Of a stretch of DNA of 64,000 nucleotides, positions 4,727 through 49,412 are shown piece by piece (the stretch's first letter is position 1; every line of letters begins with the position of its first letter). The DNA lies in the NCBI GenBank assembly GCA_951406725.2, contig OX597820.1, forward strand, positions 74,400,001 to 74,464,000, in the 5' to 3' direction. A program made the translations under genes and the position numbers. The DNA comes from Octopus vulgaris (lineage: Eukaryota). The notes beneath the pieces are model-generated. The model was not told where the DNA came from. It saw only the letters and a program-made list of their open reading frames with translations, and did no database searches.

Positions 4727-5367
4727 TGGACCGAGAGTGATAAAAATCAAACATTTTGCTAATTATTTCTTAAGAGCATATGTAATTGCGTGCAGACATA
4801 GTCACTGTCGGCCCCTCTATTCATTAGCCCCCTGGTACCTCAAAAATCTAATATTTGGGCAGAGATATACAAATAGTTAGATAGATAAAAAGATAGGAAG
4901 AGAAAGAAAATGAGAGGGAACGAAAGAGAAGGAGGAGAGAGGGGAAGAGTAATTGACAGTCTAATTGTAGCATTAGACTGGTACTAATATTTCACAGGTA
5001 CGCGGTCCAGTGATTGGGCACATGATCATAAAGCTGTAGGCTCAAGTCCTTGAGCAAACGGTGATTTGCGTTCATGAGGAGGGCTCTACAAACAAATGAA
5101 GGTACATCAGCAACTAAGTGCCCCCAACCAAACAACACCACCACCAGCGCCAACAAGAACAGAAACAACACCATCGTCACCACCACTACCACCACCACCA
5201 ACAACAACTTCAAAGAAGGAAGAGAAAATGAGAAAGACTCATACCCCACCTCCAAAAACCAATAACCTCACCCCAAATTTCACCAACCAGCATCAACACC
5301 AACAAAGTCAACGCACTCAAAAATAGACCCCAATACACTTTCCCTCCCACCTTTTGATTCCTCTGAC

Positions 5368-5802
5368 ATGTCAGATGAAGATGACACAGAAGATTGGCAA
5401 ATGGCCACAGGGGGAAGAAGAAAAGGGGGAAAAAGAATAGTGGAGCAGACAAATAAAGTAGGGAGGTTTACCACTCCCGAAACCAAAACACCCGCAGAAA
5501 ACAAAAGCATCAACACAAACACATTAACACCAAACCCCACCAACAACCCAGACCTAATGGAATACGTTTGGTCAAACACCAAAATAATAGAAAATGATAC
5601 CAAAACAAAGAATCACTCACGCACAACACCACCACAAAACATTAAAATCATACACATAAAACAGAACACACACAGAACCCTGAAATCTCTATACCCTGAT
5701 GCAATTGGGCGATTTCAAAAATACCTGTCTAAAAAACTATACAAAAACCCTTCTGGGAAAGACTGTGAGGTGAAGAACAAAGAACTTTCGGACAGTAAGT
5801 GA
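5368..5802 (+). pseudogene. Possible LINE ORF1 N-terminal remnant
   Basis: A/C-rich frame with an acidic-then-basic N-terminus (MSDEDDTEDWQMATGGRRKGGKR) just upstream of the Tx1 ORF2; no diagnostic motif seen. Confidence 0.35.
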
Positions 5803-5812
5803 CTCTCTCTCC

Positions 5813-5846
<34 letters not shown>

Positions 5847-5897
5847 TTCTCTCTCTCTCTTTCTCTTTCGTCTTCCTTTCGTTTGTAAAACATACAC

Positions 5898-8500
5898 AAA
5901 ATAGGCAGTATAAATGAACGTGTCTTGGATCGCCTTGGAAACAAGGCTACCTGCTAAACGGCATCAAGTCACACAATCTGCATATCATAGCCATCGGTGA
6001 GACCAAACTCCACAGCGCGCGGGCACTCCTGCACATGTTCGGCGGACATTTCGACATTTATTTTTCTCCGTGTCTGCCGAGAATGGGCGGAGGTGGCACC
6101 GCGGTGCTTCTTCGGAAGAGTCTGGACCTCAAAGTAAGAGCAGCCCGGAGGGTAGGTTGGTCGTCTTGGATGTCAATGGCAGTAATAGGTGTGCTTTTCG
6201 ATTAATAACAGTTTATGCACCGTCCTTAACAGACCGGCCAGCTTTCTTTCGACGTCTAGAGAGTTTCCTGGGAACGTCACGACCTTTACTTTTAGTGGGG
6301 GTTTGGAAAGCTACGCTGGACACGCATCTAGACTACGTGGGCAGAGATAGTAATAGGAAGGGATGCAAATGCCTCAAAGATCTGCTCAGACGTTTCCAAC
6401 TGTCTGACAGGTACCGACTGGACCACCCAAATGTACCAATGTGGACATGGAGCAACCGCATCGGGTCGTCCTGATAGAACATAGATAGAGTATTCTGAAG
6501 GGCAGTGGATAAGGATAGTGCAGGTTGTCCACAATTCCATATGGTCAGCTACACAGACCATAAATTTGTGACTTGTACACTTGACTTAAATAAGACATAT
6601 AGGCAGAGTCCTGGTTACTGGAAGCTGAACGCATCGTTCACAGCACGCCAGGCTTACAGGGACCGGATTAGCACATTAGTTGAGAGAGCATTGACGGGTA
6701 CCATCATCAAAAACAGATGGTGGTATACCCTAAAGAAAGCAATTAAAGCAGAATCTGTTAGGTACAGTAAGGCCCTAGCATTAGACCGAAATAGAATACA
6801 GGGAGACCTAGTTAAGAAATTAGAAGAGACACTTAGAACTGGCATCACGTCCAACGTACTGGCAGCGAGGTTGGCCCTCGACCAACACTTCAACGCCAAA
6901 CACAAAGGATGCGTTGTCAGAGCTAGGATGCGTGCTCTGAGGAACGAAGGAGTTGAAGCCGCCCGAGAGGCCCGAGTGGCGGAGGCGCAACGAGGCAACA
7001 GAGCCACCATTAGGTCACTTACAGATGAACAGGGGCGCGAATTACTCGAGCCTGAAAGGATGTGTAAGGCCTTTCAACAACACTTTGCCCGACTGTTCGG
7101 GACAACTGGTAGGTCAGAACACAGAGTTGACTTTAGTGCCTACCTGCATGGCCTGCCACGTTTCTCAGGAAGAGAAGCGGAGTGTTGTGAAAGACCCATC
7201 ACAGCCACAAACGTACGGGATGCGATGGCAGGCTGCGCAGGAGAAAGTCACCGGACTTGGATTGTCTGCCCTACGAACTTTATTGTCATATACCAAACTT
7301 GTTTGGAGGCGTCTTGGCAGCTGTCTACTGTAACTGGCAGCAAAACGGGAGTATCCCCGTCTTTGTAAAGCGAGGATCGGTGGCACTGCTAAAGAAAGAC
7401 CCAAACAAGGGGACCGTCATAGATAACTTCAGGCCCACCACTCTGCTCAACACAGGTTTGAAAATTTTGGCGAAGGTGTTAGCCGAGAGGTTGGCGCTTG
7501 TCATCGAGAAATTAGTCGACAAGGCGCAAACGTGCACCGTGCCGGGTAGGAGTATCTATGACAACCTCCATCTGATGCGTTACAATCATAAACAGGGTAG
7601 TTAAGGAACCTGGTATGGGTAGGGCGCTGATCAATTTGGATCAGTCAAAAGCTTTCGATAGGGTACACCATCACTACTTGGAGGCTGTCCTTAAAGCGGC
7701 TGGTTTCGGTCCCATCTTCCGCTGTTCGATCGCTGCCTTATACAGTGGCATCCGCTCGGTAGTTCGCGTAAATGGTCATCTATCCAGATCATTTAACATC
7801 ATGCGTTCGATTCGGCAAGGATGCCTCCTCTCATCGTTTCCGTATGTATTGACACTGCGGAAGCTGGCGACGCTGAGGCGCATCCCACGAGAGCTGGGAT
7901 GCGGGAGGAACGTGTCTGTGTATGCGGACGACGTCACCGTCATAGTGTCGAGCCACAAACACATTGACCTGGTTGGCTAGACAATAAAATAATAGGAAGC
8001 GGTAACGGGAGCAAAAATTAACCGGGAAAAGTCAGTGCGCTTGCGGCTCGGCACCTGGAGAAGTAAGCCCATTCCGTCCAACAGCGTCTCTACTGTGGGA
8101 CGCTGGACTGACGGACCGATTAAATTGCTCGGAGTTTGGCCCGGTCCGAATCTCGAAATGGAGAAGAACTGGGGCGAAATAACGACTAGGCTGGCCACTC
8201 TCACCCAGCAATGGGCCGAAAGGAAGCTATACCTAAAAGGTCAAGCGGAGGTGGAGAACGCGTACATTGCATCCGTCATCAATTACCGTCTGCATACTCT
8301 TCCGCTTCTTGTGCAAGGGAAGCGTTCCGATGGTTAGGCGATCCGTTTGCTGTCAACACCCGCTCAATGGAGGGCTAGGCATACCGTGGTTGATGATGCG
8401 CAGACATGCGCTGAGACAGTGAACAGGTGTATTCGCCGTTTGTGAGGCGCGCAGCTCGTCTCCATGACCGAACTGCAACCTTGGATCAAAAAGAGGCCGA
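5898..8500 (+). mobile_element. L1/Tx1-clade LINE ORF2 pseudogene (APE endonuclease + reverse transcriptase), frameshifted
   Basis: APE motifs (IIAIGETK, ITVYAP, TDHKFV), SPGYWKLN linker, RT motifs RPTTLLN, LDQSKAFDRV, SIRQGCLLS, VYADDV, spread over several frames. Confidence 0.93.
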
Positions 8501-8664
8501 GGCTAGGCGAATGATTGGCTTTTTTTTTTCCCCACGATCCCTTTTGATCGAAATTCGACCCACTTTATTTCTCTTCTTCTTCCCAAAAAGAAAAGCTCTA
8601 CTTTGTATTTTGTCCCCTTTGTGTTCAGCTCTGCGTGGCCAATAAAGAGGCATATCTCTCTACC

Positions 8665-9125
<461 letters not shown>

Positions 9126-11637
9126 ATCGATCAAGTAAAATATTTTATTTTTATATTTGCTTGTCTCCATTACTAATCATACAAAGTTAATTGGAAAACA
9201 GTGCCACGGAACATATTTCAAACTTTCTCTCTATACGTATGCTAGCTATACTTCCAAAGTTTCGGGGCTGCTCCTACATTTTGATTACAGTTAAAACTAT
9301 AACAAGCTGGTGTTCAGAATTATCAAGAAATATACTGCATTAGTTTATTTCTTATTTCTTTATTCCCTTTCTGTTTTTGGTTTTCGCTAGTTAAGCATCA
9401 TTAAATTATATCAACTTGAACAATGTTCACTTCAGTAAAATGATATATATTTTTTCTTTCTTACTAGTTAAATTATCCCTCCATGATGCTTGCTATACAT
9501 CAACTGCATAAAAGAAGTAAATTGCTTTTAATGTAGTTTTGGAAGTCTTTGATGTTTTACCGAAATCTGCTGATTGCTATTAACAGTCCTTGACATAAAG
9601 TGAAGGCAATATATGTAGAAAAGGTAGTCGTAATACTGGTGAGGAAAAAAAGTCTCATATGTGTAACAAAAATCCGGGTCACCAAAAGCCAATTACGAAT
9701 TTTGGTTAACGATCATATTCCTAAAATGCTCGTTTGCCATCTCGTGGTGAATTATCTGAAGAATTTATAAAATCAGGCACCTACGTTAAATTCATCCTGG
9801 TGAAAGTCTGACGGTAATAAAGAAATATAATTAAAAAAAGGCAAAACCAGGAACTGAAAAGTGGTCCCCATGAACGTTTCCATTGATTTCCAGACAGGTG
9901 AGTGGAAGGGAGAGTGTTATCCTAAAACCTGAAACCCGACGCAAATGCTTACAACAGCGTGGAGTTCTTTCCAAAAAGGCACCTATAAGCCAAAACCTGG
10001 AGCTAAACAGGCGACGAATTAAGTTTTCTATTTGTTGTTAACTACAGGTCAGTCTTGATTGAGAAGATGAGTATTAAGATATCGTCGATATTTTAGACAT
10101 GATATATGTAAGACTACATTTATGTAATGTGGACGCCTTTTTTAAAACAATAGTTTACAATTCGATGTTTTTTGACAGCTGTTTCTAAGAGCTATTTCTA
10201 ACCATACATAGGTTCCGTTGCTGGGTGAAGAATACTTGTGACTCCGTTTGCTTATTGTTGGTTAGATACAGATAAGTTCTGATTTATCTGACTTATGGTC
10301 AAAACAGGTTCAGTTGTGACTATTTAGCCGTTCCACATACATACATATATAAATACATACATATATACATACATACATACATACATACATACATACATAC
10401 ATACATACATACATACATACATACATACATACATACATACATACATACAAACATACATGTGCACTCTGCTACACTGGTGTGGAAGATATCACACACATCA
10501 GCAGTAGCTGCTCCATGCATCTATGATATATTATATGCCTCTGAGGCTTGATATGGTTGTAAAAATAATCGCGGGAAGGATTGCCCTGACGTATACATCG
10601 AATGTATGTCAGAACTAGCAGGCATTCACACCTTCAAAAGCAAGGAATATCGGTAGAATAAGCCAATAAAAACAGCTATTTGGTGCAAACGTAACAGACC
10701 TGATAATGTTTTGTGGAACAGGGGACAAAATCACACTCTGTTTTAGAAACCAGCTGCCCAGCGGATGTGAATGTACAATTAAAAGTTCAGCAAAAAGAGA
10801 ACATTTATTGTTAATCAATGCAGAAATTACAGCTCTTATTCCCTGACTATAAATTCTCGTCTGTACCTAGAATTTGTACAATAGGTTGTGCGCCTACAAA
10901 TTTACACTACAACCTAGAAATATTCGGTTTTTCGGAGAAAGTGCAAGAAACTGACGTGGCTTCTCCAAAAACAATCTATTAGCGGCAGAGTGAATATCTG
11001 TGAGACATTCCAAAGATTATCCATTTGAGAGTCTTTAGTCGAATAGATGCATTAGTTATGCATGTGCATCGACAATTCAACCGACGCACCAGTTCAGACA
11101 TATATTTACAAAAAGCGGGAAAACTTGTGAACTCAAAAAGTCTTGTCGCTTTGTGAGCGAACGGGTAAAGAACATACACGAGTGCGAGCATGCGTTGGTA
11201 TTTGTGTTTGTGTGTGTGCGTGAGCGCGTCTCTTTAAAAATACTTATAGCCTTTCATATATTGTATAACATCCTTAACCCTCTATTCGTAATTTATAAAT
11301 GTGTTTTTTTTTTCTTCTTTAGATTTTACGTTATCATTTCTTTCTTGTTAAACTCTCGGGCAGATTGCATTTTGTTTTTATTTTTATCATTTTGGTCCCT
11401 TGTGGAAATTAAGGAAAGATTATTGTTATATTTTGTTATTATAACTAGATAAAGAAATCATCATGATCGCCGTCATCTTTCTCATGTTCATCATCATTAC
11501 TTTCGTGGTTGCTTTATCTTTTACGAGGTGTTCCGAGACTTAGTCATTTTACTGTGAGTGTACTCGTATTTTTTTTAATGATTAGCAATGATATATTGCA
11601 GGGAAGGGAGAGGCAAGTCTGACAACTGCTGCTGCTC

Positions 11638-21592: not shown

Positions 21593-22070
21593 GTATATAT
21601 GTGTGCGTGTGTCTGCATGCATATGTGTGTGTATGCGTTTGTCTGTCTGTGTGTGTGTGTGTGTGTGTTTTTATGCGTGTGTTGACTGACCGTTATTGAA
21701 ATCGTGGCCTTTTGGGTTATACACGAATCGTTATTTCTCTGCATGCATTGCTATGTATTTTCTGAAACTTATAGACGTGTTGCTATTATTGTTTTTGTTG
21801 TTGTTGTTGTTGTTTTTGTATCGCCCCTGGCTGGCTCGAATCGACTAGATGTTTAAGTGAAGGCCATGCGGCCGTGTGTTTATTTTTTCCATTCATAGTT
21901 GTTTAGAGTATGCTTCTTTCTTATATAAGTATAGCTTAAAAAAAATAATTTTAAAATAACCCAGAAGATCCTTAATCCCATGAGACTTCGTTGCTATATT
22001 CTTAGAAGGAATTTAGTCTTTACTTGTGAAAAATGAAAGAATTTTTTGTTTAACAAAATTAATTTCTTTC

Positions 22071-22535
22071 AGTTCTATATTTAAGAGATGAGGAATTATG
22101 TACATTATTTACATTATTTACATTTGACAGATATGTGTCCTCATCTTGTTTGTTTTTAACACAACGTTTCAGCTGATATACCCTCTAGCCTTTATCAGGT
22201 GTATTGGGGAAATGTCTAACCTGGGTTCTCATTCCTAAGGTATTTTTCAATGTTATCAATGATATTAATACGCTAACTTTTTGTTTTTGTACGAACCTCC
22301 TCTCTCTCTTACTTTGCCGCTTGTTTGAAGTGTGACACTCACCACAGGTACGTACAAAAACAAAAAGCTAGCGTATTAATATTATTGATAACATCGAAAA
22401 ATACCTTAGGAATGAGAACCCAGGTTCGAAATTTCCCCAAGACACCTGATGAAGGCTGGAGGATATATCAGCCGAAACGTTGTGTTAACAACAAACAAGA
22501 TGATGACAAATATCCATCAAATGTAAATAATGTTA
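22071..22535. mobile_element. Inverted (head-to-head) pair of Penelope pLTR fragments
   Basis: About 22110-22298 is complementary to 22346-22532 with a 47-nt spacer; same family as 30827-30975 and 48010-48180. Confidence 0.88.
22441..22486 (+). ncRNA. Type I hammerhead ribozyme (Penelope-type minimal)
   Basis: Stem I GACAC/GTGTT; core CTGATGA plus extra A; stem II GGCTG/CAGCC; GAAA; palindromic AACGTT in place of stem III; predicted cut after GUU at 22481. Confidence 0.8.
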
Positions 22536-22558
22536 ATTCTTTCATTGTTTATGTAAAG

Positions 22559-30203: not shown

Positions 30204-30620
30204 TAGGCGTAGGAGTGGCTATGTGGTAAGTAGCTTGCTTACCAACCACATGGTTCCGGGCTCTTCGACTTTAGCCTCGGGCCGACCAAAGCCTTTTGAG
30301 TGGATTTGGTAGACGGACACTGAAAGAAGCCCGTCGTATATGTGTGCGTGAGTGTGTGTGTGTGTGTGTGTGTGCGTGTGTGTGTGCGTGTGTGTGAGTG
30401 TGTGTGTATGTGTCTGTGTTTGTTCCCCCCCAATATCGCTTGACACACCGATGCTGGTATCTCTACGTCCCCGTAACTTAGTCGTTCGGCAAAAGAGAAC
30501 GATAGAATAAGTACTAGGCTTACAAAGAATAAGTCCTGGGGTCGATTTGCTCGACTAAAGGCGGTACTCCGGTATGGCCACAGTCAAAATGAGTGACACG
30601 AGTTAAAGTTTAAAGAGTAA
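30204..30620 (+). mobile_element. SINE family B with internal deletion
   Basis: Head, internal (TG)n and tail all match the family. Confidence 0.88.
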
Positions 30621-30826: not shown

Positions 30827-31208
30827 CATTATTTACATTATTTACATTTGACGGATATTTGTCCTCATCTTGTTTGTTGTTAACACAACGTTTCAGCTGA
30901 TATACTCTCCAGCCTTCATCAGGTGTCTTAGGGAAATTTCGAACCTGGGTTCTCATTCCTAAGGTATTTTTTGATGCTATCCTTCTTCTTCTTATCATCA
31001 TCATCATCATCATCATTATTATTATTACTATTATTATTATTATTATTATTCAGGTCACTGCTGGAATCGAACTCAGAATATTGGGATTAGTAGCCTGTGC
31101 TCTTAACCGATACACCACATGTCCATGGGCAAAATGAGGACAAATATTCGTCAAGTGTAAATAATGTAAATAACGTACATAATTCCTCATCTATTAAATA
31201 TAGAACTG
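30827..31208 (-). mobile_element. Penelope pLTR with tRNA-derived head, microsatellite and hammerhead, plus short inverted tail copy
   Basis: Minus strand: A box TGGTGTATCGG and B box GAGTTCGATTCC (31051-31132), (AAT/GAT)n, hammerhead at 30882-30927; 31134-31208 is a plus-strand copy of the tail. Confidence 0.8.
30882..30927 (-). ncRNA. Type I hammerhead ribozyme, near intact
   Basis: GACAC-CTGATGA-A-GGCTG-loop-CAGCT-GAAA-CGTT-GTGTT; G.U wobble at the base of stem II. Confidence 0.7.
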
Positions 31209-47377: not shown

Positions 47378-47657
47378 TTTTCTAGTTCTCAAACAGCAAA
47401 ACAGTTCTCGCTAGATATTGCTAGTAAAGTAATGCAACAGTAATTCCTAAGCCTGTATTGATCAGCACGTAGTGCTATATAAACCTGTCTGGAAACAGAT
47501 GGTATATTACGACTATGAAAGTTCAGAAAATATATTTTCGTACTAAATCAAAAAGTTCATTTTGAGTTCAATATCTATTAAAAACAGTGCAAGATTATTC
47601 TTGGAAAGCAAAGTAAATGAATGAAAGAATGAATGAATGAAGATATTGAAAAATATT

Positions 47658-47831
47658 CCCCTGGGGAATGGAGTTAAAATAAAAGACAGAGAACACCACT
47701 GGAAAATATAAAAACTAAAAGAAGCAGCACATATGCTAGGACACATCAACCCCCTAAGCAGACCGAGTGGAGATATGAGCAGCATATGGGAACCGGTATT
47801 AAGGAAGGACAGAAAAATATTAGATTTATAA
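47658..47831 (+). pseudogene. Penelope GIY-YIG endonuclease C-terminal remnant
   Basis: PLGNGVKIKDREHHWKI*KLKEAAHMLGHINPLSRPSGDMSSIWEPVLRKDRKILDL*, matching the vkil..E..w.kRk.kEa.h pattern of Penelope endonuclease ends. Confidence 0.75.
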
Positions 47832-48180
47832 GCCCTAAAATTCACTCCACAATTGCCCACGGGCATATGGCGTAGCGGGCTACTAACTCCAAGATTCCGA
47901 GTTCGATTCCAAGCATTGACCTTAACAACAACAACAACAACAACAAAAACAACAACTACAACAACAATAATAATAATAATAATAATAATGATAATAATAA
48001 TAATAATGTAGAAAATTACCTTAGGAATGAGAACCCAGGTTCGAAATTTCTCCAAGACACCTGAGGAAGGCTGGAGGGTATATTAACCGAAATGTTGTGT
48101 TAACAACAAACAAGATGAGGACAAATATCCGTCGAATGTAAATAATGTACATAATTCCTCATCTCTTAAATATAGAACTA
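47832..48180 (+). mobile_element. Penelope pLTR: tRNA-derived segment, (AAC/AAT)n, decayed hammerhead (48056-48101), tail
   Basis: TGGCGTAG...GAGTTCGATTCC at about 47868-47910; GACAC-CTGAGGA-A-GGCTG...TAACC-GAAA-TGTT-GTGTT. Confidence 0.8.
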
Positions 48181-48309
48181 TATTGAAAAATAATTGAGGA
48201 ACATTTTATAAAATGTGGATCATAGGTACGCTTTATGAACGAGTCAAGTACATATATGTTCGTGTGCGTGTGTGCACGAGGAAAAAAACAATTTATCTGC
48301 CGGAATACT

Positions 48310-49412
48310 TACTAAATTTTGGTACAAAGCTAACAACTTTGAGGGGAGGGGAAGTCAACCATATCAACTCCAAAGCTCAGCTGGTACTTATTTTTTCCAC
48401 CCCGAAACGATGTAAGGAGCAACTGAACTCAGAACGTGAAGGGCCGGAAGAAATACCGCTAAGCATTATATCCGGTGCTGTAACGATTCTGTCAGCTAGC
48501 TGTCTTTGTATGTGGGAATATTGGGTTAAAATTTTGGCATAAGTTCAGCAATCACGGGGTATGGGTGCTCAACTGGTACTTATTTTATCGACCATAAAAG
48601 GATGAAGGGCAAAGTCGACCTCAGCAGAATTTGAACTCAGAACGTAAAGACGAATGAAATGCCGTTAAGCATTTTGTCCGGCATGAAAATGATTCTCCTT
48701 GCTTGTTACCTTGCGTCTGTGGGAATATTGGTTTCAAATCTAAGCACAATGCCAGTAATTTTGAGGGTGGGGGCCAAGTCGATTACATTGACCTCAGTGT
48801 TCTCCTGGTTCTTATTTAATTGAATCTGAAAAGGATAAAAGGCCAGATATACTTCGGCGGAATTTGAACTCAGAGCGTAATAACGGACGAAAAATTGCTA
48901 AGCACTTTGCCTGGCGTGCCAACGATTTTCCTTGCTTGCCGCCTTTGTCTATTGGAATATCAATATGTATTTTAACAGGTGACTGAGAAAATATGTTGGT
49001 TAAGGTGTTCGAAATCTTTTGGAATTCTATTAATATCTTTACAGACAGATTAGAAACCATCACTTTTCATCGTGTCATTGAAATTCAAGTAAGCAGCTCG
49101 TTCACACACCTATTCAACATCCATTGGACTTTAAGACAATTAGCGGAAGTATTGACCAGGTTACCAAATGAAACCCGCTTGTGAGTGTCGGATACAGGTT
49201 TTATATACTTTTCTACTCTAGGCACAACGCCCGAATTTTTTGGGGAGGGGGCCAGTCGATCTAATCGACGTAACTGGTACTTAATTTATCAACCCCGAAC
49301 GGATGAAATGTAAAGTCGACCTGAGCAGAATTTGAACTCAGAATGTAATGACGGACGAAATTCCGCCAAGCATTTCGCCCGGCGTGCTAACGTTTCCGCC
49401 AGCTCGCTGCCT
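48310..49412 (-). mobile_element. Four SINE family A copies (three adjacent at 48310-48945, one at 49208-49412)
   Basis: Repeated GAATTTGAACTCAGAACGTAA...CTAAGCATTT segments. Confidence 0.8.

Follow-up and report, generated by a model that had tools for sequence, protein, structure and literature searches.

A tRNA-derived head is a family trait of an octopus Penelope-like element and a candidate Pol III promoter of its short copies

What is a tRNA-like segment doing in the terminal repeat of a retrotransposon? The question is raised by a 64,000-nucleotide stretch of the Octopus vulgaris genome (assembly GCA_951406725.2, contig OX597820.1, forward-strand positions 74,400,001 to 74,464,000; hereafter the window), where positions 47658-48179 hold one 5'-truncated and defunct copy of a Penelope-like element (PLE). 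An earlier note, made from the letters alone, had proposed that the pseudo-long terminal repeat (pLTR) of this element combines a tRNA-derived head with a hammerhead ribozyme, and that it links an autonomous element to a retrozyme resembling a short interspersed nuclear element (SINE). Having sampled the source genome (2.8 Gb in 227 contigs), we propose that the fixed head, with its A and B boxes, is likely an internal promoter for RNA polymerase III (Pol III) that would give rise to the short units, running from head to tail, which form the bulk of the copies. We give this reading a probability of roughly 0.6.

In the window copy, endonuclease end, stop, tRNA-derived head, (AAC/AAT)n, ATG, minimal hammerhead and tail follow one another on the plus strand, with the stop at 47831, the tRNA-like segment within about 30 nt of it and the remaining parts where the earlier note had placed them. 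The C-terminal 58 codons of the PLE open reading frame (ORF), corresponding to the end of the GIY-YIG endonuclease region, occupy 47658-47831; they are truncated at the 5' side, contain one premature stop, finish with TAA at 47829-47831 and share 90.8% identity with the end of the ORF in a near-full-length family copy. A spacer (47832-47860), whose last 7 nt are palindromic with the head's initial 5 nt, puts the head 30 nt from the stop, at 47861-47924. The head measures 76 nt in intact copies and here lacks 12 nt after head position 14, leaving pattern matches to an A-box-like motif at 47868-47878 and to a B box at 47899-47910. The A box had been described as partly deleted; the deletion is present, but it is private to this copy, the A and B boxes of the family being intact, and the remnant still fits the A-box pattern, with the distance between the boxes shortened by 12 nt. 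A microsatellite of variable length among copies (about 47925-48008) is followed by the ATG and first 51 codons of the ORF (48027-48179), repeated at the 3' end as pLTR and stopping at the 'long', tail-bearing end, +153 from the ATG. These codons embed a minimal type I hammerhead (48056-48101) with features as in PMC4209133, consisting of stem I (48056-48060 and 48097-48101), the core (48061-48067), an extra A and stem II (48069-48088), and its motif features predict a cut after 48096 (+70); in this copy it is damaged by a stem II mismatch and a broken palindrome. Identical 13-bp target-site duplications (TSDs) lie at 47643-47655 and 48180-48192, a kind of flanking match found at 5 of 16,230 random positions. 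They surround the entire copy, and 47658-48179 is therefore a single insertion.

Domain matches and motifs assign the family to the endonuclease-bearing (EN+) PLEs of Penelope/Poseidon type. Its column-majority ORF, derived from 63 segments with a median identity of 92.9% to the majority, is open for 783 codons (2.35 kb). The natural frame of a longer family copy matches Pfam RVT_1 (E 2e-10), and another longer frame aligns through the endonuclease motif to an Anolis protein, P0014, which we infer to be a Poseidon protein (31% identity over 291 aa, E 7e-42); a Pfam search of the endonuclease stretch itself gave no match. Reading the natural frames of L046 and L286 by eye, we found the CCHH motif and no CX2-5CxxC linker, a combination used as a criterion on the basis of PMC8557442. 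A census of 85 hammerhead arms recovered the PLE characters given in PMC4209133, namely an extra nucleotide after A9, G10.1-C11.1 and a palindromic 15.2-16.2. Partial tandems, inverted 5' arms and a one-sided tail of 30-40 nt all occur, and the family fits an EN+ PLE by every structural test run. Rfam returned neither a tRNA nor a hammerhead match on the window, the region or an intact copy. When two hammerheads were cofolded freely, the active dimer fold did not come up; the fold of the monomer contained stems I and II with a mispaired core. The identification rests on motif features, and we regard the family hammerhead as a predicted ribozyme of the minimal PLE type.

The same genome harbours a young Neptune-like PLE family (L316:2078-6700, in G000:C8:57973001-57982500, and L317-L320), with intact frames of more than 1,100 codons and 21 long open frames of this kind listed. 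A cysteine linker precedes its endonuclease, its direct pLTRs carry a hammerhead-like motif with U as the first letter of the core, and its leader is very rich in T. Its pLTR contains neither the head nor A/B boxes.

Whether the head belongs to the octopus family as a whole was examined with queries that do not contain it (endonuclease and reverse transcriptase (RT)). Among 29 endonuclease-selected loci, the query being dropped, 27 reach the stop; 25 of these have the head and the other two retain its first letters only. The 27 RT-selected loci, counted without the query and two duplicates, include 16 that reach the stop, all with the head, one of them only partially. Pooled, the head is present in 41 of 43 ORF-selected copies and reduced to a stub in two, and no empty, headless site after the stop was found among these 43. 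The tRNA head is thus a family trait and part of the pLTR. Contigs of two other organisms, D and F, also bridge the junction between stop and head. A separate query with the junction itself was discounted as proof of the family trait because it selects for the junction.

We give next to no credence to the idea that an ordinary tRNA-SINE landed by chance in the window copy. A head followed by (AAT)n does resemble a SINE with a simple-repeat tail, and such an insertion may have been the ancestral event. A chance nested SINE in one copy is refuted by the constant position of the head in the ORF copies, by the single TSD spanning the whole insertion, by the bridged junction and by a tail survey in which no head with a different shared tail appeared in 664 kb; among heads not linked to an ORF, 43 of 50 continue into the hammerhead unit and 7 into unrelated sequence. 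The claim of the earlier note that the head is a family trait therefore stands, and neither of the outcomes that it had named as fatal to this claim, ORF-bearing copies mostly without the segment or a SINE with TSDs of its own, was found.

Loci selected with the ORF N-terminus carry the head block directly upstream of the ORF as well, and in frame, which makes the head the 5' leader of the element, an aspect that the earlier note, seeing a 3' feature, had missed. The hammerhead-encoded peptide can be aligned to the N-terminal end of P0001, an intact homologue of 847 aa. The repeating unit accordingly reads head, (AAT)n, ATG, hammerhead in the first codons, 2.35-kb RT-endonuclease ORF, stop, 30-nt spacer and next head. 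We also observed that other repeats, some of them containing protein-coding frames, often break up the (AAT)n tract after the head (L099, L108, L109, L266, L267); the tract may be a preferred target of microsatellite-targeting elements.

Compared with the tRNAs of the genome, the intact head scores z 4.5-8.2 for 10 of 11 anticodon types and z 1.8 for the eleventh, and none of 1000 shuffles reaches its score. The best scores are those of Arg(TCG) and Arg(TCT), and Ser(GCT) is nearest in the D-loop region (11 anticodon types compared). The search for a donor tRNA that had been recommended hence confirms that the head is tRNA-like without singling out one isotype, the best fit being Arg-like. Against the consensus patterns, the family head has a strict A box at head positions 8-18 and a strict B box at 53-61. 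Clusters of tRNA-Ser(GCT)-type motifs were noted in the genome, with 18 matches at G000:C3:70854349-70896823 and 7 at C7:103873451-103889788 (a tRNA gene was confirmed for L255), as was a tRNA-Cys cluster in L126.

How the copies begin is central to the promoter reading. In a random sample of sixty 10-kb stretches, taken at fixed intervals on contigs C1-C9 (600 kb in total), we found 15 family insertions, from which we estimate roughly 70,000 in the genome (Poisson range about 39,000-115,000) if these contigs are typical. Seven of the 15 start at most 10 nt from the first base of the head, two run upstream, two start inside the head and four are headless, so that seven of nine full heads start at about the first base of the head. 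The first 30 matches to a head pattern comprise 24 that start at this base, five linked to an ORF (three of which look like one duplicated copy) and one starting in the spacer; with a second head pattern, 2 of 12 matches were ORF-linked. Genome-wide, exact 20-mers occur 850 times for the spacer, 4,670 times for the head, only 33 nt apart, and 8,443 times for the hammerhead, giving a head-to-spacer ratio of about 4.7:1 after correction for match rates of 13/41 and 15/41. Most heads are not ORF-linked, and SINE-like short units form the majority; a head-similarity search was kept out of these headline counts because it is biased towards complete heads and the alleles of one copy. L283, L284 and L285 (at about 7.93, 8.95 and 9.05 Mb of G000:C1) are ORF-linked copies that are nearly identical and have one private microsatellite in common, which probably reflects segmental duplication.

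The excess of short units over ORF-linked heads, about 4-5 to 1, might be taken to mean that they are a separate SINE lineage using PLE enzymes, from which the autonomous element gained its head by recombination. Several solo copies do open with a few inverted head letters in place of spacer letters, as if fold-back copies had been their sources. However, at seven of eight variable sites the variants are similarly frequent in 46 ORF-linked copies and in 50 short ones, the difference at the eighth (p = 0.02) does not withstand correction for eight tests, and no headless ORF copy was found (hits from head similarity were excluded from the variant test). Since short and ORF-linked copies share their variants, no separate SINE lineage is shown, within a small sample of eight sites, and we consider such a lineage improbable.

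A finer view of the starts comes from a census of 59 heads, 30 picked by pattern and 29 by similarity: 9 are linked to a spacer, 20 fold back at the palindrome that straddles the first base of the head, and 30 start cleanly, with neither. Among the clean starts, 23 retain AC, AT or GT at -2/-1, against a rough expectation of about 22%; copying therefore ended 2-3 nt before the head, beyond the 3' arm of the palindrome. This bears on a minority possibility that we take seriously, in which the head would be a passive relic carried on long RNAs (made by Pol II, by host read-through or as circles by the hammerhead) and the 12-nt palindrome would mimic a start site through snap-back or annealing of the cDNA. 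The 20 fold-backs are centred exactly on the palindrome, and in three raw RNA-seq runs from organism B, apparently unstranded, 333-401 reads per run have a loose end at a fold-back boundary 7 nt before the head and continue as inverted head. In described PLEs, moreover, the pLTR houses both an intron and an internal promoter (PMC8557442). What a relic would not lead one to expect is that half of the 59 starts have neither spacer nor fold-back, that 23 of them end 2 nt before the head, in the palindrome loop, where the template hairpin would already be unwound, and that both boxes fit strict patterns despite the decay of the cloverleaf. Clean starts inside the loop favour a real RNA end, whereas fold-backs and long copies running upstream do not discriminate.

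The 3' ends of the copies cluster at +120-130 and +153-161 from the ATG, and inverted pairs combine one long and one short arm in 34 of 45 cases. In an element from the anole, reverse transcription starts internally in vitro, and two such starts explain the PLE tail (PMC11167929). On this basis the promoter reading can be set out as a series of steps. A tRNA or tRNA-SINE head would have been captured once between stop and ATG, its cloverleaf then decaying while the boxes were retained. Pol III would start about 2 nt before the head and meet no TTTT in the pLTR. The PLE protein would begin reverse transcription in the ORF N-terminus, at about +125 or +157, and copy back to the 5' end of the RNA; with priming inside the ORF N-terminus, a transcript of ~300 nt would be a complete template, bearing the promoter at its 5' end and the enzyme-loading site at its 3' end. 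Two cDNAs, one per start site, would join as inverted arms, the hammerhead would define neither end, and long ORF-bearing copies would come from longer or multimeric RNAs.

The ends of the short units also speak against the retrozyme part of the earlier proposal. Of 313 arms, only 7 begin, and 4 finish, no more than 3 nt from the predicted cut at +70. None of the 15 randomly sampled insertions is a head-to-tail tandem array of short units, these being mostly solo or inverted pairs with occasional direct partial repeats (for example L095 and L263), and no cut-to-cut circle matched among the RNA-seq joints listed. Because the ends follow the starts of PLE reverse transcription and not the ribozyme cut, the short units are not retrozymes; the SINE-like half of the proposal survives, as such units are the majority.

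Several observations weigh against a Pol III promoter in the head. ARAGORN called no tRNA in the window or in five intact heads, and Rfam made no head call. Identity to seven tRNAs is 15-17 of 20 positions inside the boxes versus 26-34 of 53 outside them, an enrichment that favours the promoter reading but is only partly independent evidence, since in any tRNA these two boxes are what is best conserved. Templates beginning upstream of the head do exist: among 30 loci selected with the ORF N-terminus, six have a whole head upstream, of which two start at the head (L160 and L177) and four run into the end of a previous ORF. The palindrome alone could account for the 20 fold-back starts without any start site. 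Finally, the three RNA-seq runs cover the element at equal depth in both directions and mostly within other transcripts, 67-72% of the reads placed on it continuing into unlike sequence, and in them, apparently unstranded and dominated by embedded copies as they are, molecule starts pile up neither at the head nor at the cut. Among the listed sequence records that contain the unit, none is recorded as RNA.

A bolder extension of the promoter reading, and one that we regard as rather unlikely, is that Pol III would read the whole autonomous element from the head through an ORF free of TTTT. The column-majority ORF has no sense-strand TTTT against 2.65 expected under synonymous shuffling (P = 0.038; P 0.12-0.23 under Markov nulls), and runs of G are likewise absent (1.06 expected). 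As controls, 23 other long frames contain 47 TTTT against 48.5 expected, and the headless Neptune-like ORF contains 6 against 7.1. The absence of TTTT would permit read-through and proves nothing, so that we treat it as a weak indication. The two ORF-bearing copies that start at the head, L160 and L177, lend support to a Pol III reading of the ORF. The tRNA polymerase would then drive a mobile element that codes for protein and is at once a retrotransposon and its own SINE, with translation from an uncapped RNA, possibly aided by the hammerhead at +70.

The window contains two further insertions of the family. A short unit on the minus strand (30827-31132) starts about 8 nt before its head (31124-31050) and continues through (AAT/GAT)n and a hammerhead (core at 30922) to a short end, so the order of parts does recur there, as had been claimed; an inverted second arm on the plus strand (31130-31207) bears the long, tailed end. 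The other insertion (22069-22539) is headless and consists of two diverging hammerhead arms, at about 22069-22267 on the minus and 22377-22539 on the plus strand. Another abundant short repeat, an octopus tRNA-type SINE, lies at 48340-48800 and 30400-30600; it is unrelated to the PLE head, with no match between them. Several long plus-strand frames occur at 5266-9190, one of which (6499-7368) resembles a remnant of a long interspersed nuclear element (LINE).

Promoters are known for very few PLEs, and the partner enzyme of SINE-like repeats with hammerheads, such as Sm-alpha and the retrozymes, has so far been argued mainly from similarity. Here, a single sequence, with tens of thousands of copies, is both parent element and short unit. 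The promoter reading would lead directly from a PLE to a SINE, in that internal initiation of reverse transcription makes any short transcript with a Pol III head a complete template, and the view that this element may show how SINE-like elements arise is plausible. As an in vitro PLE assay exists, each proposed step is testable. A literature search, with Repbase/Dfam/SINEBase, subscription papers and supplements outside its scope, turned up no PLE pLTR described as having a tRNA head, and the available text of two cephalopod repeat papers (PMC13282606, PMC8967140) and of PMC8557442 makes no mention of a tRNA-headed PLE.

Among the known systems closest to the family are EN+ PLEs of the Penelope/Poseidon clade such as Poseidon of Anolis carolinensis (PAc; PMC11167929), with which it shares a single ORF for RT and C-terminal endonuclease, a pLTR overlapping the ORF start and a hammerhead at that start. 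In both, 3' ends fall at two places that lie 30-40 nt apart, insertions can be tandem or inverted, and the hammerhead cut does not mark the ends. Unlike PAc, for which the available text mentions no such head, the octopus pLTR opens with a tRNA-derived A/B-box head at which most copies start. The nearest analogue of a Pol III promoter taken from a small RNA into a terminal repeat is the TRIMp3 group (PMC10886601), comprising Helenus, with a tRNA in its long terminal repeat (LTR), and Cassandra and Ajax, with 5S, for which a SINE insertion into the terminal repeat is the proposed origin. TRIMp3 elements are non-autonomous LTR elements possessing both PBS (primer-binding site) and PPT (polypurine tract), and have little terminal sequence in common with their autonomous partners, whereas the octopus head sits in the coding PLE itself. 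This coding PLE, with its tail and inverted arms, does not qualify as a TRIMp3 (two LTRs, PBS, PPT, non-coding, LTR partner), and the resemblance is one of working only.

In the schistosome repeats Sm-alpha and Sj-alpha a Pol III-type promoter likewise precedes a hammerhead (PMC6765202). The parallel drawn by the earlier note holds for this list of parts and not otherwise, since in Sm-alpha/Sj-alpha tandem transcripts are cleaved into free monomers, whose promoter then lies at their 3' end (PMC6765202), while in the octopus unit the candidate promoter stays 5', the ends ignore the cut, the ribozyme is of the minimal PLE kind and the ORF of the parent element is joined on. Metazoan non-LTR retrozymes, like the octopus unit, are short units without coding capacity that have a type I hammerhead and are related to the pLTRs of PLEs, but they occur as tandem repeats, form circles and reportedly have no promoters (PMC7761336; bioRxiv 10.64898/2026.07.22.740005); in a term search, 'tRNA', 'Pol III' and 'promoter' were absent from the main text of the latter.

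The octopus unit begins with a tRNA-derived A/B-box head at its 5' end, as a SINE does, and no separate lineage of such units is shown. tRNA-derived SINEs paired with LINEs combine an A/B-box head and a decayed cloverleaf with a 3' end shared with the RT-loading region of the partner. The octopus units are like them in both the head and the shared 3' end, and unlike them in that the partner is a PLE that itself carries the head.
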